From: Ardenticatenales bacterium
GTDB lineage: Bacteria; Chloroflexota; Anaerolineae; Promineifilales; UBA4811
Length of the DNA stretch: 58,388 nucleotides
Direction of reading: 5' to 3'
NCBI GenBank assembly: GCA_030593075.1
Contig: JAUVHW010000001.1
Coordinates: 1-58,388 of the forward strand
How positions within the stretch are numbered: the first letter of the stretch is position 1; every line of letters begins with the position of its first letter. Below the pieces are notes generated by a model. That model worked only from the letters and a program-made list of their open reading frames with translations. It did not search any database and was not told the DNA's origin. Position numbers and translations under genes: made by a program. Of the stretch, positions 13,595 to 29,822 are shown piece by piece.

Positions 13595-14098
13595 TCAGAC
13601 GGCGGGGCGCAGCTGGCGAGCCAGTAATATGACTATCAGCAGAGCGCCAGCGCTCACGACCGCGGCCCACATGCCCAGGCCGCCGGCCGGGAGCTGCCCG
13701 CCGCCGGGACCAATCGTAGGTGTGGGTGGAGGAGCGGTCGGCGATGGCTCTTCGGTCGCTTCAGGTGTTTCCTCGGCGGCGGTCTCCGCCTCTGTAGGGC
13801 GCGGGGAGGGAGTGAAGGTGGGTATCTTGGTCGGCTCGGCGGTTGGGCGAGGGCGGGTAGCTGTGGCCGGTTTGGCCTCCTGGGTCATCGCCATCACTGT
13901 CTGTGTGACCAGATAGTTCGCCGCCTCGATCGTCTGGTTCTGGATCGCGATCGGACTGTTCGCGACGTCTGCTTGCCTCACAAAAAAGATGACGATAAAG
14001 CTAACGATTCCGAGAGCCAGGAAAGCGCCCAGGATCGCGGCCACCGTTCGGAACGTCTTGTCCGAAGCTGCATCCTGCATCACAAAGTCACTTGCCAT
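13595..14098 (-). CDS. small bitopic membrane protein with a Pro/Thr/Glu-rich linker
   Basis: Two hydrophobic helices (AAILGAFLALGIVSFIVIFFV, MWAAVVSAGALLIVILLA) flank PTAEPTKIPTFTPSPRPTEAETAAEETPEATEEPSPTAPPPTPT. It has a strong SD (GGGAGG, 6 nt) and its own promoter. Confidence 0.7.
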   Translation of the reverse strand: MASDFVMQDAASDKTFRTVAAILGAFLALGIVSFIVIFFVRQADVANSPIAIQNQTIEAANYLVTQTVMAMTQEAKPATATRPRPTAEPTKIPTFTPSPRPTEAETAAEETPEATEEPSPTAPPPTPTIGPGGGQLPAGGLGMWAAVVSAGALLIVILLARQLRPAV

Positions 14099-14176: not shown

Positions 14177-15283
14177 TTAGGTCACCAATTCCAGATTCAC
14201 GTTCGGCACAAATGCCACGGTCCCGTCCTCCAGAATCACCTCCGCTCCACGGAACTTGACGCCACTCTCGACGGCGCGAGGCTCATTGCTTATTTCCTTC
14301 ACTCTGCCCACCGCTCCCCAGTAGGGGCTGCGCCTGACGCGCACCGCAAGATTGGCACTCAGCGCTCTCCTTGGCGAGGGCGCAGAGTCGGCAGGCTGAG
14401 ACGCCGGGAGGGGAATAATGATCTCAGGGCGAGACGGCTTCCAGCGATCGGGGAGCACCGCCAGAATGGTGGCCTGTCGTCCCTGGTTCTGCTGCAGCAA
14501 GTCAAAGATGGCAGACGAGATCGGGGCGCGCCCGACCCCTTCGGTAGCGACTACGGGAACTAACTGCTCACAGACTCGTTCCTGCAGCTCGGCAGGAATG
14601 CCGCCGACGATCAGCCCGCGCACTTGAAGCTCTTGCGCTCGGGCCAGCACCTCCTCGTCCAGAACGGCCCCACAAACCAAGATGGTTCCACGGTGAGCGG
14701 CCTGGACCTGCCTGGCGTCTAGCACCACATCGCGCTCTTTCACGCCCGTCGCCAGCACGCCGTAGCCCTCTTTGCCTGACCCCCACACGCCCTGAATCAG
14801 CGCCCCGGGAGTCTCTATCGTCACTCCGTATCCCGGCGCAACCTCTGCCACCGTACCGGAGAGCACAGCGCGCAGCTCGAATGGCTCAGGTTCGAGTTCA
14901 ATGATCACCCGACCACCGTCCGCAGCAATCACCTTTCCATCAACCGGCGATGTCACCTCGCGCACTTGCCGGAATCCACCTTTGTGCCACGCAAGCACGT
15001 CCCCCGGCCGGACACGGTCTCCCGGATTCCTGAGCATACAGCCGCGGGACCGATCGCGCGAGACGTTCAGTTCTTTGGCGACATTCACGATCAAGTATGG
15101 CTGCGGCAGGCTGGCCCGCGCCACGATGTCCCTTGGCTTGACCTGCTGCCCTGTCCTGACCAGCACATCCCCTTGCCTGGGAAGCATCCGCTCCCGTCGA
15201 ACAGTCGTGTGAGCCAAGATGTGCGTCTGATACGGGTAGAATCGGCTGCTCAGACAGGTAGCCCTCCTACGTCCCACAGCCAC
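14177..15283 (-). CDS. hypothetical protein with barrel-sandwich-hybrid-like N-terminal repeats and a KOW/SH3-like C-terminus (last gene of the large operon)
   Basis: Repeated G-D-x-V-x-x-G-x-x-[VL] strands (QGDVLVRTGQQVKPRDIVA, PGDRVRPGDVLAW, SPVDGKVIAADGGRVIIE). The C-terminal GAVGRVKEISNE...GAEVILEDGTVAFVPNVNLELV is KOW-like. An alternative start is ATG at 15187. Confidence 0.7.
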   Translation of the reverse strand: MAVGRRRATCLSSRFYPYQTHILAHTTVRRERMLPRQGDVLVRTGQQVKPRDIVARASLPQPYLIVNVAKELNVSRDRSRGCMLRNPGDRVRPGDVLAWHKGGFRQVREVTSPVDGKVIAADGGRVIIELEPEPFELRAVLSGTVAEVAPGYGVTIETPGALIQGVWGSGKEGYGVLATGVKERDVVLDARQVQAAHRGTILVCGAVLDEEVLARAQELQVRGLIVGGIPAELQERVCEQLVPVVATEGVGRAPISSAIFDLLQQNQGRQATILAVLPDRWKPSRPEIIIPLPASQPADSAPSPRRALSANLAVRVRRSPYWGAVGRVKEISNEPRAVESGVKFRGAEVILEDGTVAFVPNVNLELVT

Positions 15284-16992
15284 TGCCGGGTCTTGGCCCT
15301 GCGCTCAGCGGGGTCGGTAGGAAGTCTCAGCGGCCGGCCGCGCGCGTCGACAATTAGCCCCACTGCCCCGCCAAACACGCTGCGGCGGCAGCTGCGGCCT
15401 GGCCCTTCACCGACGTCGAAGCGTTTGAGCGGGCGCAGCTGCAGCTCCGCGCGATGACCGGGCTGTAGCGGCAGTACCTTGAGTGAGCCCGCTTCTACCT
15501 CCGTCTCCAGCTCGCTGCCGTTCTCGCGGATCATCTTGAGCCGCAGGATCTGCTCGCCTGGCTTTGCCTGGCCGACAGGCGCCACAACGCCACCCAGTTC
15601 GCGAAACGCACCCGACTCTATCACTTGGACCGCTGCCAATGGAACCACACCGGCAACGGCGCCCAAGGCCGGTGCCAGACCGTGTGTGTCCAGGGCCAAC
15701 ATGCAAAGGCCGACTGGCTGCAGGGCGTCCAGTAGCGCCAGGGCAGCCTGCCCCGGTCTGGGAACACTTCCCAACAGCGTGCCACCTAATAGGATCATCT
15801 CAACCGGTGGCAGCGTCCCCGTCGGCGTGGCATCGAAATGGCTCGGGAAGGCGACCGGGAGCGTGGACCGGATCAACTCACGCGCCAGTGCGAGCTCCAG
15901 GTGCAGCTCCTCCGATGTCACGGGAACAGTCTGGGGGAACAGCGCCTTGTTGGCCACAAAGTCCTTCAAGTCGCTGTCCGCCATCTCGTGGGGAAGCCAC
16001 CGCATGACCTGCTGCGAGTCAACCTGCTCCAGGAGTTTGGGCAGATTGTGGCCAATGCCTAGGTCGCTGCGCACCGCCAAATGGGAAATGCCGTTGAGTA
16101 CCGCCCCCATCGTCACGGATGCACTCCCCACGTCCACCCCTACCACGTTGTTTCCCAGGATTGCTCCCAGGTACTGCACTGACCAGCCGAACGCTTTGGC
16201 CGTCGGAATCAGCGCTCCGTTGGCCAGATTCCTGAGTTGCTCTGCCCCTGGCAGCGCGCCGAGCTTGCCCTTTTCGTAGAGCAGATCCAACTCGGCCTGG
16301 GCCGAATCCAGATACTCGGCGTCTACGTCTGGGCGGACGTTCTCTACTGCTCTCAATCCCACACCGCCCAGGATCTCCGCGACCATGGGGCGCAGCACTG
16401 GGTTCCCCGCGTAGATGACTGTCGGCGGGTCGGACCCCTTGTCTTGTAGCGAGATGGCCAGCGAGACCGTCTCTACCAGGTGAATCACGTTGGTCGCTGC
16501 ACCCCCACTGGTTCCGCCAGCTATCAAGAACACGTCCGGCTCTAGGGCGACCAGCTCCTGGACCCTCTCACTGTCTGATCGGCCGTCGGCCGGACTGAAC
16601 TCTTCCTCGATCGTGGTGTAGGTGGAGAGCGCCACCCGCCGGGCACTAGCCAGACTCAACTGGTCCGCGAGCCCCACCAGGACCGTCCTGAGTGGCTGCG
16701 CGGCACTGGTAGTGGCCACAAAACGATCTACGCCCCTTGTGCCCCCCTGGGATGGAATGAGCAGCTGCCCTTGCTCGCCCACAATCTCCCGGCCGGTTGC
16801 GGCTTCTACGTCTGCGACGGCGTTTATCATTCCCACCGTGATGTCAGACAGCGGATGAGCACCCGTGGAAGGAGCCTGCCCGTTGGCGATGAATCGGTAG
16901 CGCCCCTCCACCAAGTCTAGCAGGGCAACGCGTGTAGTGGCGCTGCCGCAGTCGGCTACCAAGACAGATCCTGATGTCTGTCCGTCCGTCAC
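15250..16992 (-). CDS. GlmL/MutL-family (glutamate mutase L-like) ASKHA-fold ATPase-like protein
   Basis: Phosphate-1-like VLVADCGSATTRVALLD. A second-lobe motif GVDVGSASVTMGAV. FLIAGGTSGG and ILLGGTLLG resemble actin/Hsp70-fold adenosine and phosphate-2 motifs. Confidence 0.7.
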   Translation of the reverse strand: MTDGQTSGSVLVADCGSATTRVALLDLVEGRYRFIANGQAPSTGAHPLSDITVGMINAVADVEAATGREIVGEQGQLLIPSQGGTRGVDRFVATTSAAQPLRTVLVGLADQLSLASARRVALSTYTTIEEEFSPADGRSDSERVQELVALEPDVFLIAGGTSGGAATNVIHLVETVSLAISLQDKGSDPPTVIYAGNPVLRPMVAEILGGVGLRAVENVRPDVDAEYLDSAQAELDLLYEKGKLGALPGAEQLRNLANGALIPTAKAFGWSVQYLGAILGNNVVGVDVGSASVTMGAVLNGISHLAVRSDLGIGHNLPKLLEQVDSQQVMRWLPHEMADSDLKDFVANKALFPQTVPVTSEELHLELALARELIRSTLPVAFPSHFDATPTGTLPPVEMILLGGTLLGSVPRPGQAALALLDALQPVGLCMLALDTHGLAPALGAVAGVVPLAAVQVIESGAFRELGGVVAPVGQAKPGEQILRLKMIRENGSELETEVEAGSLKVLPLQPGHRAELQLRPLKRFDVGEGPGRSCRRSVFGGAVGLIVDARGRPLRLPTDPAERRAKTRQWLWDVGGLPV

Positions 16993-16998: not shown

Positions 16999-17727
16999 CT
17001 ATCCGCTGCCCAGCAGGCGCATGATCTCTTGTGGTACTGATTTGATGAATTGCGCGCGCTCGGTCAGGAGCGAAAGGCTGGCGATCAGCGCCCCGGCGAA
17101 GAGCGACCCCAGGGCGACCATCAGAAAGATCTGGCCTATCCAGGCAATCGGGCGTAGCCAAGTTGGTCTATCCACTTGCCCCTCACCAGTGGGCTCAGCA
17201 CCAAAGTGGAAATAGAGCAGAGATGAGATCGTGCCGAGTATCACTACTGCGGCAGCTCCGACGTTGACCAGGTCGCTGTGGTCTGGGAGAAGAGGGTTTC
17301 CTGAGCCAGGAAGCAAGGGCAGGGCAGCGGCGTTCACTTGTGGCATCAGAGTCCCCAGAACCGCGCCACCCACGGCCACGGCTGCGCCTACGCCCATCGC
17401 GAATCCCATCACTACGTTGCCATACGGAGCAGTGCGAGGTGATAGTTTCAACAGCAGCAGGACTGCCAGCAACGCGACCACCGGTTGGACCTGCTCCTCA
17501 ATCCCGAGAGCGGCTCCTGACTGCAGTTGCCTGAAGGGTTCGACGAACTGGGGAATGAGCACCGCATAGACAGTCACGACCACCGCGTATGCCAACCCGA
17601 CACCAACCAGTAGGTGTGCTGTCAGCCGGTACAATGGGTTGTCCCCCGCTAGCACGTAGCTGTAGATCATCAGCGTGAGCACGAGGCCCAGCCCCAAGCC
17701 CAGCGCCTGAACCGCTGGGCTAGCCAT
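16999..17727 (-). CDS. polytopic integral membrane protein, unknown family
   Basis: At least six hydrophobic helices. The ATG lies inside the last codons of the giant gene (8-nt overlap). Confidence 0.8.
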   Translation of the reverse strand: MASPAVQALGLGLGLVLTLMIYSYVLAGDNPLYRLTAHLLVGVGLAYAVVVTVYAVLIPQFVEPFRQLQSGAALGIEEQVQPVVALLAVLLLLKLSPRTAPYGNVVMGFAMGVGAAVAVGGAVLGTLMPQVNAAALPLLPGSGNPLLPDHSDLVNVGAAAVVILGTISSLLYFHFGAEPTGEGQVDRPTWLRPIAWIGQIFLMVALGSLFAGALIASLSLLTERAQFIKSVPQEIMRLLGSG

Positions 17728-20700
17728 GATGCGGTCTCCCGACCAGTCCAGCCACGCTCCCCCAGATTAACCCAATGACGGAGAGCAGTACGGCGACGCC
17801 AATCCCCAACGCCTGGGAGTCATTCAAGCTAGCTGCATTCCCCTGCTGGGGCTGTTCGCCTCCAGCCCCGTACCGAGCCGCACCGGAGACACCAGCTACT
17901 ATTCCTTCCAACTGCCTGGGGTCGTTCTGATAGTATGGAAGGGCCCAGGGTTCGAGGCCGGCGCTCACTCCGGTCACTATCGGCACCGCCTCCATGCCCG
18001 GCAGCCGCCTCGTCTGCTCGATCCACCCCGTCAGGTCGTCGCGCGCGGCAGCGAGAACCAGAACTAGATCTACATCGGCCAGCGTATTGGTGAGCCCGCC
18101 AGCTGCCGGGGCGACTCGAGCCAACCCGCTGCCCAGATAGTCGTTCGCAGGGAACACCTTCCAGGGATTGGCGGCAAAGGCCTGCACGCCAACCGCCCCT
18201 CCCGGAATGTAGCCCAGGTTGAGGTAGTCTTGGCCGTATGCATATCCATAGTCGTCGGCCAGCTCTTGCATCAGGCTCTGGGCGGTCTGAGGGCCGGCTG
18301 GCTTGGTGCTCACCGTCAGAATGCGCGCTCTGCGGTCCATCAGATGGCCCACCATGGTGGAGGAAATGGACCCGAGCTCGCCGGCCGTGGCTGGGGAGTA
18401 CTCAAAGGCAACCAGTGCTAGGGCTTCATCCGGGAGGTTTGCCAACACATCATGGGCTGAGCGAATCTGGTCCGCAATCGCCGGCTGGCCGCTGGCCGTA
18501 GGTAGCGGATTCCCCAGAATGACTGGCAGGAGCACTGCCAGCAACACCACGACGGCGATGACGACCTGCTCAATCCAACCCTGCGGACCGCTGGGCGGCG
18601 ACATTTCCCGTCTGGCTGCTGGACCGGCATGGACAATCTGTTCCAGGACCTGAGCATGACGACGCTCGTGCTCGGTAACGGCCAGCTCCTGTGCCGCTTC
18701 CCTCAAGGGGTGCGCGGGGATAGCTAGGTCGGCCGGCAGCGCCCCTCTCACGCCTACGAGCGGGCCTGCTGGTTCCTCCGGTTCGGGCTCGCCTGCTTCC
18801 GTCTCGTCGGTCTTGAGGGCCTCCAGCCAATCCGGGACCACTGCCTGCGAGAGCTCCAGCCCCTCCTCCGGAGCTAGATCCTCTTCGGCGAGTTCGCCCA
18901 GCCGGGCAGGGGCGCCTGAAGGGCGGAGCCAGTCAACGACCTCTGGCTCGACTGTCGCGTCTGGTTCCGGCTGCAGCCAATCTCGAGCCTCTGTCTCTCG
19001 GACGTCCGCTGGTTGCAGCCGTGGAGCCTGGGTGCTCACATCCGGACGCGGCGCGCTGGACTCCTGGGATGATTTCCAGACAGCAGATGCATCGGGTTCT
19101 GGCTGTCTAGCCACGTAGGGAGCCAGCAAGGCGTCCGCCGCCGGCGGGGAATCTCCACCGCCCTCTTGCTCAGCGAGCCACTCCGCGAATTCGGCTGCCG
19201 CGGATGAGTCGCTGTCCCCGGCAAGCCAATCTGGTAGCTCTGGAGGGACCAGCCCGTCTGTCGCCTTCCGCTTCTCGCTCGGGGTCGGCTCCTTAGCGGG
19301 CGGCGGTGCGATTGTGTCAAGCCAGTCTGATAGGGCCTCCGCCTCCGCTGGGGTGGGAGATGGTGCGCGGGACTCCTCGGCCGCCGGCTGGGACGTGAGC
19401 TGCACACGGTCGGCGCCCGTGTCGCTGGGTGGTAGGAGGTCCAGCAGTGCACGGTCCGGCATCTCCAGCGTACCGTCGTCGGGAGTGACCTCCTGGAGCC
19501 AATCCGCGAGCTTGTCGAACTCTGACACCTCCTCCCCGGCCGGTGGTCCAACCTCATCCAGTCTCTCTTGGACAGCTTCGGTGGGCCGCGCTTCCTCGAA
19601 CCGTTCAGGAAGCTCTTCGAGCCCGATGACCGCCCCGGTGGACGGCGGCAGGAGGTCTTCCGGTCTTTCCAGGACGGCTTCGCTGGGCCCCCCTTCACCG
19701 AACTGTTCAGGAAGCTCTTCCAGCCCGATGACTGCCCCGGTGGACGGTGCCCCAGGTGCCTGGGAGATTGCCGGTTGCGGTGCGAATTCCCTCAGCCAAT
19801 CCGGCACCTCGCCAGGCTCTATCTCGGCTTCGGTGGCTGAGGGCGCCCAGCCTGCCGGGGCTTGCAGGCTTTCCTCTTCGGGAGCAACTTGGTCGACCCA
19901 ATCCAGCAACTGACCGGTGTCAATGTCGCCTCTACCTACTCCAAAAAGTGGTGATATCTGTGATTCTACCCCGCCGGAAGGTGGGGGTGGCGCGGCCGGC
20001 TCACCTCCGGCATCAAGGGCAGGCGTCTCGGGAGCGGATTTCCGGGGAGCAAACTCGGCCAGCCAGTCTGGCACTGTTCCGGGTTCGATCTGGCCATCCT
20101 GGGCGGGCGCTGCGAGGTCCGGTGGCCCTTGCTGCTCATCATCGGTGGGAGCGACTTGGTCCACCCAAGCTATTATCTCGCCGGTGTCGATGTCGCCTCT
20201 GCCTACCCCAAACAGCGGCGGTATATCGGGCTGGGCCGGTTGAACTCCCTCTGGCGCCTCACTAGGTGCGATTTGGGCATCCGGAACAGGCGCTGCGGAG
20301 GTGATGCCGCGGGGCGCGAATTCCTCCAGCCAACTTGGCAGTTCGGCGGGGGGCAACTCGTCGCCGGCTGGGATCGTCAGGCCCTCTGGCGCTTCTGGCA
20401 TGCCTTCCTCGGGCGAGACCTGCTCCACCCAAGCCAGCAACTCACTGGTATCGACCTCTCCTCTACCTACTCCGTTGAGGGGCTCGACCTCTGCCACAAC
20501 TTGCTCGAGTGGTTCCTGCGTCCCTGTCGGCTCATCCTCGACCTCGGCGGCCGGGGGTTCCTCGGAGACGGCCTCTCCGGGTGCTAGGGCCGCGAGCCAG
20601 TCGGGCCCCTCGCCCGGTTCAGCAACGCCTTCCGCAGCTTGTGGAGGCACCGCCTCCTTTGCTGGTTCCAGTGTCCTGGCGGGCTCGGCCGGCACTTGGG

Positions 20701-23700
20701 CGACCGCAGGTGCTCCGACAGCTTCCGCAGGGCCAACCTCCTCCGCTGCGTCGGTGGCGGCCTGCCGGGGCGCGAACTCTTCCAGCCAGTCCGGTATTGC
20801 GCCGGGGGCCAGCCCGTCGTCGCCGGCCGCGATCGCCATGCCCTCTGGCATTTCTGCCATGTCCGCCTGGGGCCCGGCTTGGTCTACCCAAGCTATCATC
20901 TCGCCGGTGTCGACCTCTCCTCTGCCTACTCCGATGAGGGGCTCGACCTCTGCCACAACTTGCTCGAGTCGTTCCTGCGTCCCCGTCGGCTCCGCCTCGA
21001 CCTCGGCGGCCGGGGGTTCATCGGAGACGGCCTGTCCGGGTGCTAGCGCTGCGAGCCAATCTGGCACCTCGCCTGGCGCTACCACGCCCTCAAGCTCTAC
21101 GGCCGTCGGCTCCTTGGGGACGGCTTGTCCAGGCGCCAGCGCCGTGAGCCAATCTGGGACCTCGCCCGCTTCAGCGACACCTTCGGCAGCTGGCATCGTC
21201 AGGTCGGCCGGAGCCTCTGCGATGCCCTCCTGTGGTGCAATCTCGTCCACAAAGGCGCGCGGTTCGCTGGTGAGAACTCTGCCCTTACCTGGCTCAAGGG
21301 GAGATGGCTTCTCGGGTTCGACTTGGTCGAGTTCCACGAACGCCTCAGTGACTTCGGCCTCCGGCACTGGAGCCGTAAGGTCCTCCAGCGCCTGCAGTGT
21401 GTCCTCCTGTGGCGCGATTTCATCGACCCAGGCGCGCAGTTCGCCGGTGACGAGTCTGCCTGCGCCGAATTCGGGGGGAGTGGGCATCTCCTGCCCTGGC
21501 TGTTCGAGTGGCGGTGCTTCAGCCAGTTCGGGCGCAGCCTCGCTGGCCGCAGGCTCGCCGGCGGCTGCCGGACCTGCAGCCTGCTTGATGGGTTCTGGCG
21601 CCTCAGGGGCGGCCTCCCGGGGCGCGAAGCCCTCCAGCCAGTCTGGCAGTTCGCCCGGCTCGATCTCAACAGCCTCAGCTCCAATAGCCAGACCCTCTGG
21701 CATCTCTGTCACGACATCCTGGGGCTCTGCTTGGTCCACCCACGCCAGTAGCTCGGTGGTGTCGATCTCTCCTCTGCCTACTCCAATAAGGGGCTCGACC
21801 TCTGGTGCAGTTTCCTCGGCAGGTTCCTCCGCCCCCGTCGGCTCAGGCTCGGCCTCCACAGCTGGGGGCTCTTCGGAGACAGCCTGTCCGGGTGCGAGGG
21901 CCGCAAGCCAGTCGGGCACCTCGCCCGGTTCAGCACTCGGTTCAGCAACGGCTTCGGCAGCATCCTCAGGCGCCTCCTCCGCTGGCTGTAGGGCCTCAGG
22001 GGGCTCAACCTCGGCTTCGGCGGCCGCAAGGACCTGGGCTTCAGGAGGCGCCTCCTCCTCCGCAGAGACAGCCTGCCCGGGTCCGAGAGCCGCAAGCCAA
22101 TCGGGCACCTCTCCCGGTGCAGCAACGGCTTCGGCAGCTTCTGGAGCCGCCTCCTCCACTGGCTGCAGGGCCTCAGGGGGTTCAGCCTCCGCTTCGGCGG
22201 CGGCAGGTGCTTTGACATCTTCCGGCTGGGCAACCTGCTCCGCCGGTTCCGCCGCCTCAGGGGCGGCCGGGCGGGGCGCAGAGTCCTCCAGCCAGTCTGG
22301 CAGCTGGGCGGGTTCAGCCCCGGCCTCGTCGACCGCGATAGCCAAGCCATCTGGTAGCTCTGTCACCTCCTCCTTAGGCCCGACTTGGTCCACCCATGCC
22401 AGCAGTTCGCCGGTGTCGATCTCTCCTTTGCCTACTCCGCTGAGGGGCTGGACCTCTGGTGTAGTTTCCTCAGCAGGTTCCTGCGTCCCCGTCGGCTCAG
22501 GCTCGGCCTCTACAGCTGGGGGCTCCTCGGAGACAGCCTGTCCGGGTGCGAGGGCCGCGAGCCAGTCGGGTATCTCTCCCGGTTCAGCAACGGCTTCGGC
22601 AGCTTCTGGAGCCGCCTCCTCCGCTGGCTGCAGGGCCTCAGGGGGTTCAGCCTCCACTTCGGCGGCGGCAGGTGCTTTGACATCTTCCGGCTGGGCAACC
22701 TGCTCCGCCGGTTCCGCCGCCTCAGGGGCGGCCGGGCGGGGCGCATAGTCCTCCAGCCAATGTGGCAGCTCGCCGGGCTCGATCTCAACCTGCTCGGCTT
22801 CGATGGCTAAAACCTCTGGTGTCTCTGTCAGGTCACGTTGGGGCCCGACTTGGTCCACCCATGCCAGCAGTTCGTCGGTGTCGATCTCTCCTCTGCCTAC
22901 TCCGCTGAGGGGCCCGACCTCTGGTGTAGTTTCCTCAGCAGGTTCCTGCGCCGCCGTCGGCTCAGGCTCGGCCTCTACAGCTGGCGGCTCCTCGGAGACA
23001 GCCTGTCCGGGTGCGAGGGCCGCGAGCCAGTCGGGCACCTCGCCCGGTTCGGTGACAGCTTCGGCGACTTCTGAAGGTACCACGTCCTTTGCCGGTTCCA
23101 GGGCCCCAGGGGGCTCAACCTCCACCTCGGCGGCAGGCTCGGCCTCCGCTTCGACAACTGCAGCCTTCTCGACCGGCTCAGGGGCTTCGGCGCGCCGGTC
23201 CTCTGCCTCGGTAGATTCTCGAGGGGCAGCCTGCTCCATCTGTTCCGCCGCCTCGGCGAGGCCGGTCTCTACCTCGACGGCGACCTCCCCCTCGGCCTCC
23301 GCTTTGGCGGCTTCTGGAGCAGCAATCCCCTCTGCAGGTTGCGGGACCTCAGATGGTTCGGCTCTAGCCTCGACAGCGGGTTCCGCTGACTCGGTAGGGA
23401 CGGCGTGCCGGCGCATTATCTCGCCGAGCCAGCCTGTCTTCCCTTTGGGCTTGACCCTGATCTCGGTGACTTGCTCCTCTGGCCCGGCAGTGGGGGGCTT
23501 GGCTTCCTCGGTGGATACACCGTGCCGACGGACGATGTCGTTGAGCCAGCCTGTCTGTCCCGGGGGCACCGCCCGGACTCCAACCTCATCAGGTTTCTCG
23601 TCTGTCTCCTCCGAGCTTGGCTCAGGCTCCTCGGGGATACCGTGCTGGCGGACGATGTCGCCAAGCCAGTCCGTCTGTCCTGGGGGCGCCGCCCGGACTC

Positions 23701-26377
23701 CAACCTCATCAGGTTTCTTGTCTGTCTCCTCCGAGCTTGGCTCAGGCTCTTCGGGAATACCGTGCCGGCGGACGATGTCGCCGAGCCAGTCCGTCTCCAT
23801 GACCGGCTGAGCCGTGGCCTCTTTCGGCGGGGCCTCCCTCCGCGAGGGCCAGGCGAGCTGGTCGGGTGTCTCGGCGGGCCCGGGCTTGGTTCCGGCTGGA
23901 GGGGCTGGTGCCTCCGGGACAGTCTCCAGAGCAGTGCTGGAGTCTCGGGGGCGGCGCTTGCGTGGCTCGGGGAGTTTGTGCCGGCGCGCGATGTCGCCAA
24001 GCCAGTCGGTCCCCATGGCTGGTCGAGCCTTGAACTCTTTTGGCGGGACCTCCCCTAGCAAAGGCTCGGCGAGTTGGTCCGGGCCCTCGGCGGGCTCAGC
24101 ACTGGCCTCAGCCAGGGATTCCTCCGATATCGCCTCGGCTGGCGGAATCTCTGCGAGCGGTGGCTGCTCAGCAGGTGCATCCTCTATGTCGCCCGGCTCT
24201 ATCTCGGCCTTTGCCTCTACTTCCTCAATCATGGGTTCCGGGGGTGTCATCTCCCTCGGCTGCTCCGGCGCCTCGACCGTCTCGGGCTTGGGACCTGCCG
24301 CTTGGCTCTGGGCCTCCGTGGGCAGCCCCTCGGGCAGGACGATCTGCGCAAGCCACTCGGGCGCCTCAGCAGGGCTGACCTCGGTCTCCTCAGGCTGCGC
24401 CCTGGCCTCGGGCGATACAGCTTCCAGTGGAGCAATGTCTTCCAGCTTTTCTGGCGTCTCGGCGGGCTCGGCCTCGGTGGCAGCGGGCTTGCCCTGGACC
24501 TCGACGGGCATGGCCTCCGCAGCCAGTTCGGGCGCCTCCGCGGGCCCGACCTCGGCCTCGCCTGGCTGCGTCTCAGGTGCGGCGTCCGCCGGAGCAATCT
24601 CCTGAGGTGGTGCTGGTGCCTCGACGGGCTCGGCCTCAACGATCTCTGGAACTGCTCCTGAGGGTTCGGCCTCCGCAAAGGCTTCCGAGACGTCCTCAAC
24701 CACGGCTTCCACTGGGCGGGCCTCTGTCTCGACCTCGGCGGCCGATGGCTCGGCTGTTTCTGGCACCGTGATTTCTCGCAGCCACTCTGGTGCCTCATCG
24801 AGCTTGGTCTCGGCGGCGCTGGGCTCTGGTACCTGCTGCACGGCTTCAGCGGGCGCGGCTGTCTCGAGTGATTCTTGCTCCTCAGGCGGCTCGATCTGGA
24901 CCACCGGAGGCTGTGCAGCTTCTGCCGCACCTTCTGCCGCACCTTCTGCAGCCGTAATTCCCTGCAGCCAGCCGGCCACCTGACCAGGTTCGATTTCGGC
25001 GGCCGGAGGCGCCGGAGCCTCCAAGTCAGTTTTCCCGGCCGTGATCCCATCCAGCCAACTGGGCGCCTCGCTGCCCTGTGTCCCAGCCTGAATCGCGGTT
25101 TGGTCAGAACCGGCCTCTGGAGGAGCGGCCAGCGCTTCCGGCGCAGGTCCCAGCTTGTCCAGCCATGATGGCAATCCCCCAGGGCCGGCTGCTGGTTGCT
25201 CCATCGCCGCTCCCTCAAGCCACTCCATCAGCTCGCCGGTCTTGGCTGCTGTAGGGCCCGCAGGGGGCTCAGGTCTCTCTGGGGTCAAGTCCCGCGGCGC
25301 CATATCTTGGAGCCAGTCCGGTAGCTCGCCGGGTTCTACGGAGACGTCCCCCGTTGGTGACAGGCTGTCGGGCGCGGCTTGCTCGACCCATCCGCGCAGT
25401 TCGCTGATTTCAACCTTGTCCTGGCGCGGCGCAACTTCATCGACCCATCCCGTCAGCTCGCCGGTCTCGAGCTTGCCCTTGCGTACCTCGACGGGTGGAG
25501 GCTGTGGCTCGACCTCGGTGGCGGCCGGCTCGGCTTCTTCCGCCAGGGGTTCGTGCTCGGCTTCCGCGACTGCAATCTCCAGGTCGGCTGGGAACTCGAG
25601 CGCACCTTCGTGTGGCGCGACCTCGTCGATCCACGCTCGCAGTTCGCCGGTGAGGATCCTACCCTTGCCGATGTCGGGTGAGGAGGGAGCCTCCTCCTGG
25701 GATAGTTCCCGCAGCCATTGGGGTGTCTTCTGGTCGCTGTCTGCTTCTTGCTGGGTGGGACCATCCTCCCGTGCGGCCATCAGGTCGGGTGAGAGGTTGA
25801 CCAGCCAGTCCGGCACCTCGTCCTGGGCGGCTCCCGCTGAGCCCGCCTTGTCTGTTGCGCTTGGCGCTCTAGGTGCTTCTCCGGCGGGTGTGGGGATCTG
25901 CCGAGGCGGCGCTGTTGGCTGGCCCACACCTTCGCGGGGGGTGGCGCTTGCCTTTGCTATCCCGGGCGGTTCCGGCGTTTCGCGGAATCGGCTCAACGTA
26001 TCCTCGTCCGCCAGGGGCCCCGTTGTCCACGGCCCCGGTGTGGGCTTTGCTGGCGCTGCTGAGCTGGCTTCAGACAGGCCCGGCTGCAGGTCGGCCAGCC
26101 ACTCGGGCATGTCAGCAGCGGGCGATGGCTCTCTACTGGGCAGCGAGAGGCCGCGCACCGAACTCTCTTGGGCGTTCCGGTCTTGGGCCGGGCTACGTCC
26201 AGCTATTGGGATCATCCTGGCGCCGCATTCGTCACAGAAGACGTTGCTGAATGGGTTCATTGCGCCGCATGAAGGGCATCGTCCTGCCGTGTCAGGGGCT
26301 AGCTTCTCCCCGCAAGAGCCGCAGAACCTACTGCCCTCGCTGATGGGGCTTGCGCACTTGGGGCAACGCTGTGCCAT
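17720..26377 (-). CDS. giant (2885-aa) double-zinc-ribbon protein with an acidic Trp-motif repeat array and a C-terminal TM-loop-TM membrane module
   Basis: Uninterrupted 8.6-kb ORF. The N-terminus has two CxxC-N10-CxxC knuckle pairs (CPKC..CGSC, CPSC..CDEC). About 2500 aa are E/A/P-rich repeats. The last 286 aa (17723-18580) contain IEQVVIAVVVLLAVLLPVIL, a loop of about 235 aa, and ALGIGVAVLLSVIGLIWGSVAGLV. Confidence 0.9.
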   Translation of the reverse strand: MAQRCPKCASPISEGSRFCGSCGEKLAPDTAGRCPSCGAMNPFSNVFCDECGARMIPIAGRSPAQDRNAQESSVRGLSLPSREPSPAADMPEWLADLQPGLSEASSAAPAKPTPGPWTTGPLADEDTLSRFRETPEPPGIAKASATPREGVGQPTAPPRQIPTPAGEAPRAPSATDKAGSAGAAQDEVPDWLVNLSPDLMAAREDGPTQQEADSDQKTPQWLRELSQEEAPSSPDIGKGRILTGELRAWIDEVAPHEGALEFPADLEIAVAEAEHEPLAEEAEPAATEVEPQPPPVEVRKGKLETGELTGWVDEVAPRQDKVEISELRGWVEQAAPDSLSPTGDVSVEPGELPDWLQDMAPRDLTPERPEPPAGPTAAKTGELMEWLEGAAMEQPAAGPGGLPSWLDKLGPAPEALAAPPEAGSDQTAIQAGTQGSEAPSWLDGITAGKTDLEAPAPPAAEIEPGQVAGWLQGITAAEGAAEGAAEAAQPPVVQIEPPEEQESLETAAPAEAVQQVPEPSAAETKLDEAPEWLREITVPETAEPSAAEVETEARPVEAVVEDVSEAFAEAEPSGAVPEIVEAEPVEAPAPPQEIAPADAAPETQPGEAEVGPAEAPELAAEAMPVEVQGKPAATEAEPAETPEKLEDIAPLEAVSPEARAQPEETEVSPAEAPEWLAQIVLPEGLPTEAQSQAAGPKPETVEAPEQPREMTPPEPMIEEVEAKAEIEPGDIEDAPAEQPPLAEIPPAEAISEESLAEASAEPAEGPDQLAEPLLGEVPPKEFKARPAMGTDWLGDIARRHKLPEPRKRRPRDSSTALETVPEAPAPPAGTKPGPAETPDQLAWPSRREAPPKEATAQPVMETDWLGDIVRRHGIPEEPEPSSEETDKKPDEVGVRAAPPGQTDWLGDIVRQHGIPEEPEPSSEETDEKPDEVGVRAVPPGQTGWLNDIVRRHGVSTEEAKPPTAGPEEQVTEIRVKPKGKTGWLGEIMRRHAVPTESAEPAVEARAEPSEVPQPAEGIAAPEAAKAEAEGEVAVEVETGLAEAAEQMEQAAPRESTEAEDRRAEAPEPVEKAAVVEAEAEPAAEVEVEPPGALEPAKDVVPSEVAEAVTEPGEVPDWLAALAPGQAVSEEPPAVEAEPEPTAAQEPAEETTPEVGPLSGVGRGEIDTDELLAWVDQVGPQRDLTETPEVLAIEAEQVEIEPGELPHWLEDYAPRPAAPEAAEPAEQVAQPEDVKAPAAAEVEAEPPEALQPAEEAAPEAAEAVAEPGEIPDWLAALAPGQAVSEEPPAVEAEPEPTGTQEPAEETTPEVQPLSGVGKGEIDTGELLAWVDQVGPKEEVTELPDGLAIAVDEAGAEPAQLPDWLEDSAPRPAAPEAAEPAEQVAQPEDVKAPAAAEAEAEPPEALQPVEEAAPEAAEAVAAPGEVPDWLAALGPGQAVSAEEEAPPEAQVLAAAEAEVEPPEALQPAEEAPEDAAEAVAEPSAEPGEVPDWLAALAPGQAVSEEPPAVEAEPEPTGAEEPAEETAPEVEPLIGVGRGEIDTTELLAWVDQAEPQDVVTEMPEGLAIGAEAVEIEPGELPDWLEGFAPREAAPEAPEPIKQAAGPAAAGEPAASEAAPELAEAPPLEQPGQEMPTPPEFGAGRLVTGELRAWVDEIAPQEDTLQALEDLTAPVPEAEVTEAFVELDQVEPEKPSPLEPGKGRVLTSEPRAFVDEIAPQEGIAEAPADLTMPAAEGVAEAGEVPDWLTALAPGQAVPKEPTAVELEGVVAPGEVPDWLAALAPGQAVSDEPPAAEVEAEPTGTQERLEQVVAEVEPLIGVGRGEVDTGEMIAWVDQAGPQADMAEMPEGMAIAAGDDGLAPGAIPDWLEEFAPRQAATDAAEEVGPAEAVGAPAVAQVPAEPARTLEPAKEAVPPQAAEGVAEPGEGPDWLAALAPGEAVSEEPPAAEVEDEPTGTQEPLEQVVAEVEPLNGVGRGEVDTSELLAWVEQVSPEEGMPEAPEGLTIPAGDELPPAELPSWLEEFAPRGITSAAPVPDAQIAPSEAPEGVQPAQPDIPPLFGVGRGDIDTGEIIAWVDQVAPTDDEQQGPPDLAAPAQDGQIEPGTVPDWLAEFAPRKSAPETPALDAGGEPAAPPPPSGGVESQISPLFGVGRGDIDTGQLLDWVDQVAPEEESLQAPAGWAPSATEAEIEPGEVPDWLREFAPQPAISQAPGAPSTGAVIGLEELPEQFGEGGPSEAVLERPEDLLPPSTGAVIGLEELPERFEEARPTEAVQERLDEVGPPAGEEVSEFDKLADWLQEVTPDDGTLEMPDRALLDLLPPSDTGADRVQLTSQPAAEESRAPSPTPAEAEALSDWLDTIAPPPAKEPTPSEKRKATDGLVPPELPDWLAGDSDSSAAAEFAEWLAEQEGGGDSPPAADALLAPYVARQPEPDASAVWKSSQESSAPRPDVSTQAPRLQPADVRETEARDWLQPEPDATVEPEVVDWLRPSGAPARLGELAEEDLAPEEGLELSQAVVPDWLEALKTDETEAGEPEPEEPAGPLVGVRGALPADLAIPAHPLREAAQELAVTEHERRHAQVLEQIVHAGPAARREMSPPSGPQGWIEQVVIAVVVLLAVLLPVILGNPLPTASGQPAIADQIRSAHDVLANLPDEALALVAFEYSPATAGELGSISSTMVGHLMDRRARILTVSTKPAGPQTAQSLMQELADDYGYAYGQDYLNLGYIPGGAVGVQAFAANPWKVFPANDYLGSGLARVAPAAGGLTNTLADVDLVLVLAAARDDLTGWIEQTRRLPGMEAVPIVTGVSAGLEPWALPYYQNDPRQLEGIVAGVSGAARYGAGGEQPQQGNAASLNDSQALGIGVAVLLSVIGLIWGSVAGLVGRPHHG
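20300..23100 (-). repeat. intragenic super-repeat array, about 465-bp period, inside the giant ORF
   Basis: Six or more units encode ...GEVPDWLAALAPGQAVSEEPPAVEAEPEPTG...GVGRGEIDTGELLAWVDQ...EPGELPDWLE.FAPR.... The youngest pair, 22120-22294 vs 22585-22759, differs at 3 of 175 nt by manual alignment. Confidence 0.8.
23400..24015 (-). repeat. five basic DWLGDIVRRHG(I/V)P modules; the central copies are on a 120-bp period
   Basis: GTDWLGDIARRHKLP, ETDWLGDIVRRHGIP, QTDWLGDIVRQHGIP, QTGWLNDIVRRHGVS and KTGWLGEIMRRHAVP. The sequence starting at 23521, 23641 and 23761 aligns almost base for base. Confidence 0.8.
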
Positions 26378-26380
26378 GGG

Positions 26381-28429
26381 CTAGAACTCCCGCGCGCTCC
26401 CGGCTTCGTCGGGACCGGCGTCTGCAAGGGGGGCCGGCACTTCCGGCGCAGCTCTGTTGGGTCTTAGTTTGTCGAGCCAGGAGGGCAGACCACCAGTGTC
26501 GGCTGCGGGCTCCTCCGCCGCTGCTTGATCGAGCCACTCCATTAACATTCCCGTCTTGGCTGCGGCCGCCGGACTCATAGGCTCAGTTTCCTGGGGCGGC
26601 GCCATTTCTTGGATCCAGTCGGGTACCTCGCCGCGTTCTACTGTGGCGCCCCCCGCTGCTGCCTGCTCAACCCATCCGCGCAGTTCTCCAGTCTCGACCT
26701 CGTCCTGGCGCGGTGCGATTTGGTCGAGCCATCCAGTGAGTTCACCGGTCTCGACCTTGCCCTTATGCACCTCGGGCGCTGGAGGCTGTGGCTTGACATC
26801 AACGGCCGGCTCGGGTTCTTCCGTGACCGGAATCTCCAGGTGCGCCGGGGAACCGAGATCAGCTTCGTGGGGCGCGACTTCGTTGATCCACGAGCGCAGT
26901 TCGCCGGCGGGGATTCTGGCCTTGCCTGTGTCCGCCGAGGGTGGGGTCTTCTTGGAAGGTTCCTGCAGCCACTGAGGTGGTTCCTTGTCGCTCTCTGCTT
27001 CTCGTTGGGGCGGTCCCCCCTCCCGTGCAGCCTGTAGGTCGGGCGCGAGACTGACCTGCCACCTGGGCACCTCGTCCTGGGTGCCTGCCCTAGCAGGCTC
27101 CTCTGACGCTGCTTCCTCGAGCCACTCCATTGACATGTCGGTCTTGGCTGCGGCCGCCTCAGTCGGAGGCTCGGACCTGGCCGCCGGCGCTATTTCTTGG
27201 ATCCAGTCGGGTACCAAGCCGGGTTCAAGTGCGGGGTCCCCCAAAGCCGCCGAGCTGTCGGGCGCGCCCTTCTCAACCCACTCGCGCAGTTCTCCGGTCG
27301 CAACTCTGTCCTGGCGCGGTGCGATTTGGTCGAGCCATCCAGTGAGTTCGCCGGTCTCGACCCTGCCCTTGTGTACCTCGGCGGGTGGAGGCGGCGGCTT
27401 GACGTCCACTGCCGGCTTGGGTTGTTCGGCGACTGGAATCGCCAGGTTTGCCGGGAGATCGAGCTCAGCCTCGGTTAGTGCAACCTCGTCGATCCATGAC
27501 TGTGATTCGCCGGTGCTGATTCTGCTCTGGCGTGTGTCCGCTGAGGGTAGCGCCTCCTGGGAAGGCTCTTGCAGCCACTGAGGTGGTCCCTGCTCGCTGT
27601 CTGCTTCTCGTTGGGGCGGTCCGCCTTCGTTTGCAGAATCCAGATCGGGTGGCAGATCGGCCCGCCCCCTGTGCGCCTCGCCCTGGACGCCTGCCGGTGC
27701 AGGCTCCTCCACCGCGGGTTCATTGAGCCACTTCCTTAGCCCGCTGGTCTTGACCGCTGCATCTCCCGCCGCGGGATCGGATGTCGCCGGCGATGCCACT
27801 TCCTGGAGCCAACCGGGTACCTCCTCGGATTCGGGGGCGGTGTCCCCGCATGCCGCCGAGCTGTCGGGCGCGCCCTTCTCAACCCACTCGCGCAGTTCTC
27901 CGGTCGAGACTCTGTCCTGGCGCGGTGCGACTTCGTCGAGCCATCCAGTGAGTTCGCCGGTCTCGAGCTTGCCCTTGCGGACCTCGGCGGGTGAGGGACT
28001 CGCTTCCGCTGGCGCTGACGGCCCTGACATTTCACGGAGCCGGCGAATTGTGTCCTCGTCGGCCAGGGGGCCCGTTGTCCACGGCGTCGGCGTGGGCGTT
28101 CCTGGAGCTGCCAAGCTGGCCTCAGTCAGGCCTGGCTGCAGCTGGGCCAGCCAGTCGGGTATGTCGCCATCAGGCGTGGCTTCTTTACTAGGCAGAGAGA
28201 GGCCGCGAACCGAACTCTCTTGGGCTTCCTCGCCTGGAGCCGGGCCAGGTCCAGCTATTGAGATCATCCTGGCGCCGCAGTCATCACAGAAGACGTTATT
28301 GAATGGGTTCATGGCGCCGCATTTGGGGCATCGTCCTGTCGTGTCAGGGGTCAACTTCTGGCCGCAGGAGGGGCAGAACCTGTTGCCGTCGCTGACGGGG
28401 TTTGCGCACTTGGGGCAGCGTTGCGCCAT
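26381..28429 (-). CDS. 682-aa paralog of the giant protein: double zinc ribbon plus three Trp-motif super-repeats, no membrane module
   Basis: 48 of the first 60 residues are identical to the giant protein by manual alignment (MAQRCPKCA.P.S.G.RFC.SCG.KL.PDT.GRCP.CGAMNPF.NVFCD.CGARM). The rest is KGK(L/V)ETGELTGWLD..APRQD.V.TGELR.WVE..., VPDWIQE and PPQWLQEP. Confidence 0.9.
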   Translation of the reverse strand: MAQRCPKCANPVSDGNRFCPSCGQKLTPDTTGRCPKCGAMNPFNNVFCDDCGARMISIAGPGPAPGEEAQESSVRGLSLPSKEATPDGDIPDWLAQLQPGLTEASLAAPGTPTPTPWTTGPLADEDTIRRLREMSGPSAPAEASPSPAEVRKGKLETGELTGWLDEVAPRQDRVSTGELREWVEKGAPDSSAACGDTAPESEEVPGWLQEVASPATSDPAAGDAAVKTSGLRKWLNEPAVEEPAPAGVQGEAHRGRADLPPDLDSANEGGPPQREADSEQGPPQWLQEPSQEALPSADTRQSRISTGESQSWIDEVALTEAELDLPANLAIPVAEQPKPAVDVKPPPPPAEVHKGRVETGELTGWLDQIAPRQDRVATGELREWVEKGAPDSSAALGDPALEPGLVPDWIQEIAPAARSEPPTEAAAAKTDMSMEWLEEAASEEPARAGTQDEVPRWQVSLAPDLQAAREGGPPQREAESDKEPPQWLQEPSKKTPPSADTGKARIPAGELRSWINEVAPHEADLGSPAHLEIPVTEEPEPAVDVKPQPPAPEVHKGKVETGELTGWLDQIAPRQDEVETGELRGWVEQAAAGGATVERGEVPDWIQEMAPPQETEPMSPAAAAKTGMLMEWLDQAAAEEPAADTGGLPSWLDKLRPNRAAPEVPAPLADAGPDEAGSAREF
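26600..28000 (-). repeat. three ~605-bp (about 200-codon) tandem repeats inside the 682-aa ORF
   Basis: The K-G-[KR]-[LV]-E-T-G-E-L-T-G-W-L-D coding block recurs near 26750, 27355 and 27965. One copy of the same block occurs in the giant gene near 25470. Confidence 0.75.
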
Positions 28430-28432: not shown

Positions 28433-29056
28433 TTATAGATCCCGCTCGCTGTGCGGCTGGTCAATCCCAACCAACACCCGTATGCCGGCTGCAATGGTGC
28501 CCAGTGCGACGCCCAGCAGCATACCCCGGGCTCCGGCCGCGGAAAAGACGTGGACCAGCCAGCAACGCACGTCGCCCGCTACCTGGGCCACCTCACCGGG
28601 CAGTGGCAGCGCAGCCAGGAGAACGAGGATGATGGTACCCACGAAAACAGAGGTGGGAAGCGAAGGTCGTTTTCGCATAGCGCGGAACGCGGCCGAGACC
28701 AGAAAAACGGCGAGCAGCGAGGCTGTCGCTGCCTCCAGCGGTGCCAGCACGAAACGAAACACCCAAGTAACACCCGCTCCGCTTGGCCCTTGGTGTTCAG
28801 CAGCGGCAACTGCTATCACAACTACAAACGAAAAGAGGAGGGCGGTGCTGTAGGGCCAGTCTCGTTCTTGGCTTACAATGCGGCGCCCGTGAACGACCAG
28901 CAAGTTGACGACGCCCAACACAAACGCCGCGGCCGCCAACGCGGCCGCCCAACGGACGAAGAGAAGATGGACCCGGAATCCCGGGCCGACGAAATACCCG
29001 AGCAGCGTTGCCCCGCCTGACGCGACGGCAACCACTGTGGGGACACGCTGCCTCAC
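28433..29056 (-). CDS. polytopic integral membrane protein, unknown family
   Basis: Five to six hydrophobic helices. Only 3 nt separate it from the downstream zinc-ribbon gene. Confidence 0.8.
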   Translation of the reverse strand: MRQRVPTVVAVASGGATLLGYFVGPGFRVHLLFVRWAAALAAAAFVLGVVNLLVVHGRRIVSQERDWPYSTALLFSFVVVIAVAAAEHQGPSGAGVTWVFRFVLAPLEAATASLLAVFLVSAAFRAMRKRPSLPTSVFVGTIILVLLAALPLPGEVAQVAGDVRCWLVHVFSAAGARGMLLGVALGTIAAGIRVLVGIDQPHSERDL

Positions 29057-29069: not shown

Positions 29070-29822
29070 CTAGAACAGCGACACTCCCAACGTGCGCAGC
29101 AGCGCGGCCACCAGGATCAGCGCCACGACGCCGAACCGCACTGCATCTTGTGCTTGCAGACTCGCCAGCAGGGCGGGCTTTCGGCTTAGGTAGGCCGGCA
29201 CTGCATACACCTCTTCTCCTATCAGCGGCGCGTCGGAAACTGCGAAAAGCATGGCCATAGCCTGCGGGTCGTCGGTGCCTGCTATTTGCGTGATGCCGCT
29301 CTGTGCGGCGGGGTGAGCCAGCAGCAAGGCCTCAGGGCCAAAAGAGCCAATCATCACGTTGACGGCTGTTTCCTCCGGCCGCATGTGGGTCGAAGCGCCC
29401 AACGCGTAGATGGTCGGTTGTGGGGCTACCATCTCGACCTGTGCGGAATCGAACTCGTGCAGTAGGTCGCTGTGGGCACAAGCCTGGCGTAAGCTGTCTT
29501 GTGCCGCTGCCATCACCAGCGGATCGGCGGCCGTTACCAGCGGCGGTGCACCAGCCGAGCATGCTTGCTTCCCCACATGGTCTAGCGCAGCGAGCCCCGC
29601 CAGTGTCGTCGCTGTCGTCGAGTCGGTGAGGGCGCCTGTTCCCAGCGAGACGTGTATTCTCTTTCCTGTCTCCACCGCCCCACCCACCACGTAGGGCAGG
29701 TTGTCGAGCGCCTGGATGCGACGCACGTGGACCTGGTGGCCTTCTTTGATCCTCTGCGCGAGAAAGAGGATCAGTGCTAGCATCGAAAGGACCGCAAATG
29801 CACCCAATATCAGAGTAGCCAC
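29070..29822 (-). CDS. bitopic membrane protein (N- and C-terminal TM helices flanking a ~190-aa domain), unknown family
   Basis: TLILGAFAVLSMLALILFLA at the N-terminus and FGVVALILVAALLRTLGV at the C-terminus. The GTG start overlaps the upstream stop (TAGTG). Confidence 0.8.
   Translation of the reverse strand: MATLILGAFAVLSMLALILFLAQRIKEGHQVHVRRIQALDNLPYVVGGAVETGKRIHVSLGTGALTDSTTATTLAGLAALDHVGKQACSAGAPPLVTAADPLVMAAAQDSLRQACAHSDLLHEFDSAQVEMVAPQPTIYALGASTHMRPEETAVNVMIGSFGPEALLLAHPAAQSGITQIAGTDDPQAMAMLFAVSDAPLIGEEVYAVPAYLSRKPALLASLQAQDAVRFGVVALILVAALLRTLGVSLF

Follow-up and report, generated by a model that had tools for sequence, protein, structure and literature searches.

The DNA analyzed here, referred to throughout as the window, is a stretch of 58,388 nucleotides (nt) of contig JAUVHW010000001.1 (assembly GCA_030593075.1) from an Ardenticatenales bacterium, and all coordinates are positions in this window. 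Its minus strand carries an open reading frame (ORF) for a giant protein of 2885 amino acids (aa), in which N-terminal zinc ribbons are followed by a long acidic chain with 51 tryptophan motifs and by a C-terminal anchor made of an α/β domain between two transmembrane segments (TMs). We find that this protein belongs to a conserved, uncharacterized family of Chloroflexota, chiefly of Anaerolineales, in which it stands out by a roughly threefold hyper-expansion, and that its gene is the third in a conserved order that is constant in the window and in the loci of 52 species, L001 included (Table 1). An initial annotation of the same DNA had overlooked the family, its conserved operon with an ASKHA (actin/Hsp70-fold) ATPase, and an anchor-less paralogue encoded beside the giant.

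Table 1. Genes of the operon, in order of transcription, and features of the 2885-aa protein
Feature	Position	Strand	Support or occurrence
Gene 1: DUF6754 protein (TM, ~200 aa, TM)	29070..29822	-	Pfam E 8e-45; 44/52 loci
Gene 2: 207-aa polytopic membrane protein, no known family	28433..29056	-	45/52 loci
682-aa paralogue: double zinc ribbon, 20 Trp motifs, no TM	26381..28429	-	
Giant ORF, 2885 aa, ATG start: zinc ribbons, Trp-motif array, TM, α/β domain, TM	17720..26377	-	
Double zinc ribbon, aa 5-52, two CxxC-N10-CxxC units	26222..26365	-	Pfam DZR PF12773 E 1e-9; Zn_ribbon_3, Zn_Ribbon_1
Acidic Ala/Glu/Pro-rich disordered region, aa 56-2590, ~2540 aa, 51 Trp-centred motifs, median spacing 39 aa	18608..26212	-	
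Five copies of the T[DG]WLGDIVRRHG variant, aa ~780-1000	23378..24040	-	Includes 120-nt tandem repeat, 90% identical
Super-repeat zone, aa 1100-2217, units of ~155 aa (465 nt)	19727..23080	-	DNA identity of copies 60-88%
Juxtamembrane segment kept across the family (GPLxGxRGxL ... TEHERRHAQVLEQIVH), directly before TM1	18590..18790	-	Homologue alignment
TM1, aa 2597-2629	18491..18589	-	Hydropathy 2.92; helix in AlphaFold2 model
Predicted extracytoplasmic α/β (Rossmann-like) domain, family-invariant GWIEQ + SAxxEP...PY	17822..18490	-	No Pfam/NCBIfam model
TM2, aa 2853-2881, then short basic tail	17735..17821	-	Hydropathy, homologue alignment
Gene 4: 242-aa polytopic membrane protein, start overlaps stop of giant by 8 nt, no known family	16999..17727	-	52/52 loci
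Gene 5: GlmL/MutL-like ASKHA ATPase, ~120-aa C-terminal extension	15250..16992	-	PF13941 E 7e-64; 52/52 loci
Gene 6: soluble protein, barrel-sandwich hybrid + C-terminal KOW-like domain	14177..15283	-	50/52 loci
Gene 7 (sometimes): 167-aa protein (TM, Pro/Thr-rich, TM)	13595..14098	-	Detected at 16/52 loci

Architecture of the giant protein

The eight N-terminal cysteines are spaced as C5xxC8-N10-C19xxC22 and C34xxC37-N10-C48xxC51, and the Pfam double zinc ribbon model DZR (PF12773) is matched with 38.7 bits by the whole protein and with 47.4 bits by residues 1-59 alone, against a cutoff of 27.3. Residues 56-2599 carry a net charge of -428, and Ala, Glu and Pro (17.2%, 16.8% and 14.7%, respectively) make up 49% of them. 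On a charge-hydropathy plot, 92 of 98 windows of 100 aa from this middle region fall on the disordered side, while the zinc ribbon and the C-terminal domain fall on the ordered side. A hydropathy scan of the entire protein reveals only two TM-like segments, residues 2597-2629 and 2853-2881 with about 223 aa between them, and no TM-like or signal-like segment upstream of residue 2597. A Pfam scan of the entire protein (E ≤ 1) detected no GYF domain and no repeat-domain matches. The initial annotation had described two CxxC-N10-CxxC pairs without a signal peptide, a disordered middle region dominated by Glu, Ala and Pro, and two hydrophobic C-terminal helices around a loop, and in all these respects it was correct. 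The plus strand opposite the giant (18.3-26.4 kb) also bears ORFs of up to 815 aa, such as 20301-22748, but these are shadow ORFs that coincide with the strong AT skew (-0.24 to -0.33) produced by Glu, Ala and Pro codons, and are not genes.

Arg and His residues precede TM1, and tails rich in Arg and Lys follow TM2 in all aligned homologues. Because the zinc ribbon has no signal peptide, 2596 residues pass without a hydrophobic segment and basic residues flank the two TMs, we infer a topology of N-in/loop-out/C-in. The ribbon and the motif array would thus be cytoplasmic and the α/β domain would lie outside, with a helical hairpin in the membrane, as the initial annotation had proposed. Bacterial proteins that are giant and repetitive usually sit at the cell surface, which could be taken to favor an adhesin-like repeat protein that is exported by a cryptic route and leaves its α/β domain inside the cell. 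However, this arrangement is extremely unlikely given the Cys4 zinc ribbons at the N-terminus, the long stretch that lacks any signal peptide or hydrophobic segment, and the basic residues found family-wide on the cytoplasmic flanks of both TMs. Moreover, the repeats form no Ig- or cadherin-like units (predicted template modeling score, pTM, of 0.17 for one unit), and the giant has neither the secretion signal nor the folded repeat domains of giant surface adhesins of the RTX, Bap or Ig-repeat type.

The C-terminal 306 aa match no Pfam or NCBIfam model. An AlphaFold2 model of the anchor, built from an alignment of eight sequences, shows a confident core in which strands alternate with helices, bracketed by one long TM helix on each side, with predicted local distance difference test (pLDDT) values of 85-96 over ~180 residues. 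The domain is 50% identical to that of homologue P0001 (E 7.5e-82), and columns W206, E208, Q209, S226, A227, E230, P231 and Y236 are invariant across the aligned homologues. A Foldseek comparison of this model with the PDB returned generic Rossmann-like matches (E ≥ 0.005, TM-score ~0.3) and none at E ≤ 1e-3. Matches this generic permit no functional assignment for the anchor domain.

A tryptophan motif shared across a Chloroflexota family

The giant contains 56 Trp residues, and 47 of the 51 that lie in the middle region are followed by Leu, Ile, Val or Met. The pattern P[DE]W[LIVM] occurs 19 times, versus a maximum of 4 across 2000 composition-preserving shuffles. The main Trp contexts, P-[DE]-W-L, GEL-x-x-W-V-D-x-x-x-P and T-D-W-L-G-D-I-V-R-R-H-G, were likewise equalled in none of these shuffles; peptides EPGELPDWLEEFAPR, GRGEIDTGELLAWVDQV and GQTDWLGDIVRRHG exemplify the motif types. 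The best-conserved part of the array is a super-repeat present in seven copies, each unit of which bears the three motifs EPGEVPDWLAALAPGQ, GVGRGEIDTGELLAWVDQV and EPGELPDWLEEFAPR. When the seven copies are aligned, the invariant columns are those of the three motifs, and the linkers are variable. For one unit, AlphaFold2 predicts no fold (pTM 0.17, mean pLDDT 59, with the giant's own repeat copies serving as the alignment) and only three short helices, located at DWLA, LLAWVDQV and DWLE. Since both the invariant columns and the helices coincide with the motifs, these are best described as short linear motifs in a disordered chain rather than as parts of a folded repeat. An additional motif, GRGxxDTxxLxxW, occurs seven times in the giant and in none of the other sampled members (218 sampled). 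A homologue search with three super-repeats gave zero matches, not even to the giant itself, which is probably due to low-complexity word saturation.

The family to which the giant belongs is large. A profile search against 1.84 billion representatives yielded 4471 family clusters (at 50% identity) with E ≤ 1e-3 and 2212 with E ≤ 1e-30. The 52 species loci come from a genome scan for the anchor domain, made with a four-sequence alignment since an eight-sequence version had too few conserved stretches; all are from Chloroflexota, mostly from Anaerolineales/Anaerolineae. Family ORFs at these loci encode 405-1229 aa in the order zinc ribbon, acidic disordered linker, juxtamembrane segment, TM, α/β domain and TM. 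The orthologue of the cultivable species Anaerolinea thermophila (L038), for instance, has 760 aa. Nearly all begin with a single zinc ribbon (CPMCGKPNP...CQxCxARLKPL), and each linker holds between 1 and 30 Trp sites. The consensus of the 640 Trp sites in the 52 homologues is [DE]-[DE]-x-[DE]-L-P-D-W-L, where position -2 is P at 69% of sites, position -1 is D at 66% and position +1 is L at 68%. The giant is assigned to this family by its anchor motifs, by its zinc ribbon and acidic P-D-W-L linker, and by its operon context. Its length, which the initial annotation had considered exceptional, is indeed so, at 2.35 times that of the longest of 218 sampled relatives (median 800 aa, maximum 1229 aa).

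The closest clade includes hypothetical proteins from metagenome-assembled genomes (MAGs) of Anaerolineales (such as P0023, P0025, P0027, P0031 and P0067). These proteins have the domain order of the giant and share its double zinc ribbon with a subsequent ESSVRGLSLPS motif, its LPDWL motifs, its GPLxGxRG juxtamembrane segment and its operon, and their anchor domains are 45-60% identical to that of the giant. However, they reach only 930-1180 aa with ~20-27 Trp, compared to 2885 aa and 56 Trp, and the GRGxxDTxxLxxW motif and the anchor-less paralogue are extras of the giant's lineage. The nearest relative, at locus L002 of a long-read MAG, has ~1015 aa and is broken by frameshifts. In this nanopore-based sequence the orthologue (7933-10978 of L002) is split into ORFs of 188, 311 and 498 aa, most likely through sequencing indels and not because the gene is truly divided.

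The initial annotation viewed the middle region as a low-complexity tether, and although its composition and disorder are as described there, the region is not featureless, since it holds an array of ~51 conserved Trp motifs. A purely passive role, as a disordered tether or polyanionic brush, would nevertheless be consistent with the charge of -428, the 49% of Ala, Glu and Pro, the lack of a predicted fold and the 92 of 98 windows on the disordered side. Such a chain would act through length, charge and excluded volume, for example by keeping the zinc ribbon at a distance or by excluding the nucleoid or ribosomes from a patch of membrane, and the Trp motifs would be incidental remnants of the repeats. 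The 14 non-synonymous versus 7 synonymous codon changes found between two strains in the last 927 aa also fit this possibility, being a looser pattern than in the neighbor genes, although they are too sparse for a contrast between motifs and linkers. However, the LPDWL core is kept across 52 species whose linkers cannot be aligned, and the motifs are the invariant columns among the internal repeats. Moreover, linker length in the family ranges from ~100 to 900 aa and the number of motifs rises with it, which suggests that selection acts on the number of motifs and not on distance. A passive chain therefore appears rather unlikely, and the occurrence of the LPDWL motif in all 52 species examined argues for multivalent docking instead of passive spacing. 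The reach of the chain is also more modest than was first proposed. Its stretched contour measures 916 nm, and only in that fully extended state could the tether span a cell, as the initial annotation had envisaged; random-coil scaling laws give a radius of gyration of ~15-21 nm, so a realistic reach is tens of nanometers rather than the whole cell.

Lineage-specific expansion by tandem duplication

The number of motifs in the giant grew to 51 through lineage-specific internal tandem duplications with units of 465 and 120 nt, and a duplication at the 5′ end gave rise to the 682-aa copy with 20 more. Both zinc-ribbon genes start with TA[AG]-CCC-ATG-GC, and the codons that precede the start of the giant are similar to the final codons of the 207-aa gene upstream of the 682-aa ORF. 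These matching starts and the retained gene tail indicate that the 682-aa ORF originated by tandem duplication of a segment comprising the tail of the upstream gene and the first ~430 codons. Over the first 135 codons, which form the unambiguous part of the comparison, the two copies show a synonymous divergence (dS) of 0.43 and a ratio of non-synonymous to synonymous divergence (dN/dS) of 0.37, as expected for an old duplication with purifying selection on both copies. The only relatives of the 682-aa ORF are anchor-bearing members of the family, and hence this ORF is lineage-specific. Together, the two chains of this lineage carry four ribbons and 71 motifs. Each zinc-ribbon ATG lies three bases past the upstream stop and in the frame of the upstream ORF (TAG-CCC-ATG at 26375-26383 and TAA-CCC-ATG at 28427-28435). 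Read-through of the TAG would join the 682-aa and 2885-aa proteins into one chain of 3568 aa, but this in-frame arrangement is probably a by-product of the tandem duplication.

Three short-read contigs from Logan (L054-L056), derived from different runs, reproduce the window from 20505 down, at most to 6999. The longest covers the 3′ 2.8 kb of the giant and 10.7 kb downstream, with ten downstream genes, at 99.3% identity and without gaps, so that the last 927 aa of the giant are confirmed. The contig from SRR18936876 differs from the window at 3 of 7776 bases, which indicates that the same strain is present in several public datasets. All three contigs end at 20505, inside a 35-nt exact repeat (20476-20510 and 20935-20969). 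This is the first exact repeat of that size they encounter, and a stop there is expected for assemblies with k=31. These ends leave the upstream 5.9 kb of the giant gene without independent confirmation, and the 2885-aa sequence has its exact match in a public collection as a singleton cluster. Both observations are compatible with an assembly artefact, in which mis-joined repeats would have inflated or chimerized a gene with a true length of ~1000 aa like its relatives. However, the DNA repeats within 17.7-28.5 kb are only 60-90% identical, and the longest exact repeat (89 nt) is below the read length and can thus be resolved by ordinary reads, which makes an artefact unlikely. Further evidence against it comes from the frame, which stays open over 8.6 kb with motifs intact all along, from the gap-free match of the 3′ and downstream regions, and from the paralogue, whose dS under purifying selection shows that it is no duplicated pile of reads. 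We hence consider an artefactual inflation of the gene to be highly improbable. The expansion is real and old, as is evident from the divergence of the repeats (to 60-90% identity), the dS of 0.43 for the paralogue and the junction that keeps the tail of the upstream gene.

The operon, a candidate docking scaffold and its parallels

Wherever the 207-aa protein, the DUF6754 protein or the barrel-sandwich/KOW protein (g368) is missing from one of the 52 loci, the locus lies at a contig end. The MutL-like ATPase has invariant ASKHA nucleotide-binding motifs and matches PF13941 at the superfamily level, but it reaches only 85-89 bits with the GlmL-related equivalogs of NCBIfam, whose cutoffs are 475-600, and no genes for B12-dependent mutases adjoin it among the operon genes. 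Scans of 45 members of both polytopic families gave no informative Pfam match, only isolated weak ones to single members. Profiles of the ATPase and of the barrel-sandwich/KOW protein, whose true start probably yields ~336 aa, detected nothing significant among PDB sequences beyond a weak KOW match. The DUF6754 protein shares the layout of the giant's anchor but shows no detectable homology to it (hhalign probability 10%), and basic residues after its first TM suggest that it is oriented the other way round, with a cytoplasmic domain. The possibility of a duplicated membrane pair was dropped, because hhalign detects no homology between the DUF6754 and anchor domains or between the two polytopic proteins. 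A role in anti-phage defense was also rejected, given that the operon is a core gene set and that no PADLOC model was matched except for a weak Pro-rich match in the 167-aa protein. The weak matches of this last protein to NCBIfam GltJ (18 bits, where 450 are required) and PADLOC PD-T4-6 both lie in its Pro-rich stretch and are probably compositional. A literature search returned nothing relevant on DUF6754, PF13941, the PDWL motif, GlmL in combination with actin-like proteins, or zinc ribbons of Anaerolineae.

Downstream of the operon, a block on the minus strand (8057-13450) encodes a regulator with AAA_22 and Trans_reg_C domains, a PspA/IM30 protein and two membrane-anchored solute-binding-like proteins, one of which has a fused VWA domain. 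Only the closest relative, L002, has this block in common with the window; the other 51 species do not. Upstream (30295-32619) are divergently transcribed genes for a Helicase_C_3 protein and a DUF3786 protein, which are syntenic in L001 and L002, and the helicase-like gene is also present at two other loci. The region 34436-51959 is metabolic and encodes an FAD-linked oxidase, a CCG/Fe-S protein, a LarA-like protein, Ldh_2, biotin carboxylase, ketoacyl synthase and two carboxyltransferase paralogues (43334-44884 and 50019-51959). The same region also includes a response-regulator/GAF/PAS/HisKA protein and a glutamine synthetase.

With moderate confidence, we favor the interpretation that the giant is a membrane-anchored multivalent docking scaffold that was hyper-expanded by internal duplication. 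The Trp motifs would be putative short linear docking sites in the form of pre-formed helical turns, each binding one copy of a cytoplasmic partner, and the flexible multivalent chain would concentrate this partner at the membrane complex of the operon. The likeliest candidate partners are the ASKHA ATPase, the barrel-sandwich/KOW protein, or the giant's own zinc ribbon. Expansion would raise both valency and capture radius, and the anchor-less paralogue could either extend the scaffold or compete with it. Several points weigh against this interpretation. The partners of the motifs are candidates only, and GlmL-type ASKHA proteins are known as accessory or reactivating factors of mutases, not as scaffold ligands; moreover, the operon ATPase is far under the NCBIfam cutoffs for GlmL. 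The acidic chain could instead work by bulk charge or excluded volume, with the Trp motifs serving another role. A further objection is that no independent contig backs the central 5.9 kb (20505-26377), so that the exact number of motifs is provisional, and that the giant is a predicted gene product.

The scaffold interpretation can be extended, as a speculation that we consider a long shot, to an unrecognized membrane machine of filamentous Chloroflexota. The LPDWL array, like a multiplied peptide of the FtsZ-tail or WH2 type, might capture, tether or nucleate assemblies of the GlmL-like ATPase and be coupled through the TM hairpin to the extracellular α/β domain. The chains with 51 and 20 motifs might then form a polyanionic, partner-loaded layer or condensate that extends tens of nanometers into a very thin cell. 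Anaerolineales are filamentous bacteria that abound in sludge, sediments and soils, and to our knowledge almost nothing has been established about their cell biology. The giant is the extreme end of a family with thousands of sequence clusters that is built on a countable motif, but the more important finding is the family itself, together with an operon of mostly family-less proteins plus an actin/Hsp70-fold ATPase. The system is testable, with one motif, few candidate partners and a natural range of valencies that runs from 1 to 51. Should the motif recruit the ATPase, it would define a new membrane-organizing module and a rare bacterial case of very high-valency scaffolding by short linear motifs.

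Several known systems resemble parts of this arrangement. MamJ of magnetotactic bacteria is acidic, repetitive and rich in Ala, Glu, Pro and Val; its gene lies beside that of the actin-fold ATPase MamK, and MamJ has been proposed as the connection between a membrane structure and MamK. The likeness to the giant and its ATPase is one of composition and gene neighborhood only, since MamJ has ~450 aa and lacks a zinc ribbon, a TM anchor and LPDWL motifs, and MamK is a filament-forming actin whereas the operon ATPase is GlmL-like. ASKHA proteins often serve as docking platforms for short peptides from partners in the membrane or the cytoskeleton, as in FtsA with the FtsZ tail and PilM with PilN. 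For example, the acidic disordered linker of FtsZ ends in a peptide of the D-I-P-x-F-L-R type that docks on FtsA (which has an ASKHA fold), ZipA and SepF. The family motif [DE]-L-P-D-W-L-[RKQ] resembles this tail, a similarity that may serve as a lead, although FtsZ, a tubulin-fold GTPase, carries only one such peptide at its end and here a membrane protein bears dozens of copies. In eukaryotes, the DPW/DPF repeats of Eps15 and epsin and the Trp repeats of GW182 are disordered chains in which tens of aromatic motifs dock in pockets and create avidity, an analogy of principle only, given that the organisms and partners are unrelated.

Zinc ribbons followed by disordered regions have also been described in other bacterial proteins. 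The redox chaperone Ruc (Rv0991c), which occurs in Chloroflexi, has a Cys4 zinc ribbon and then an intrinsically disordered region, but it is small and soluble, with a tail of 7-61 aa, no repeats or anchor, and chaperone genes as neighbors (PMC7448276). A closer parallel is GltJ of the Agl-Glt gliding machinery of Myxococcus xanthus, in which, as in the giant, an N-terminal cytoplasmic zinc ribbon and a disordered linker that bears a short binding motif precede a TM and an extracytoplasmic domain, and which is part of a co-encoded multi-protein envelope complex (PMC11135422). The linker motif of GltJ is bound competitively by its own zinc ribbon and by MglA-GTP (PMC11135422). A GltJ-like switch or self-network is thus conceivable, in which the ribbons bind LPDWL motifs of their own or of neighboring chains, including the 682-aa paralogue, and either cause auto-inhibition or form a gel- or condensate-like membrane layer that a competing ligand dissolves. 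The pairing of a zinc ribbon (in nearly all members) with at least one motif across the family, and the four ribbons and 71 motifs in the two chains of this lineage, are in keeping with such a mechanism. However, the giant lacks a GYF domain, and two ribbons would leave most of its 51 motifs free. We regard the mechanism as distinctly unlikely for the giant, but it is compatible with the scaffold interpretation and does not exclude it. GltJ differs further in that it has a GYF domain, bears one motif in a linker of 95 aa and binds MglA, MglB and AglZ, whereas the giant has 51 motifs, another extracytoplasmic domain and a second TM. The NCBIfam scan gave no GltJ match for the giant, and the window contains no Agl, Glt or Mgl genes. 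Nevertheless, by analogy, GltJ would be the best mechanistic precedent for docking motifs in a chain that joins a zinc ribbon to the membrane.

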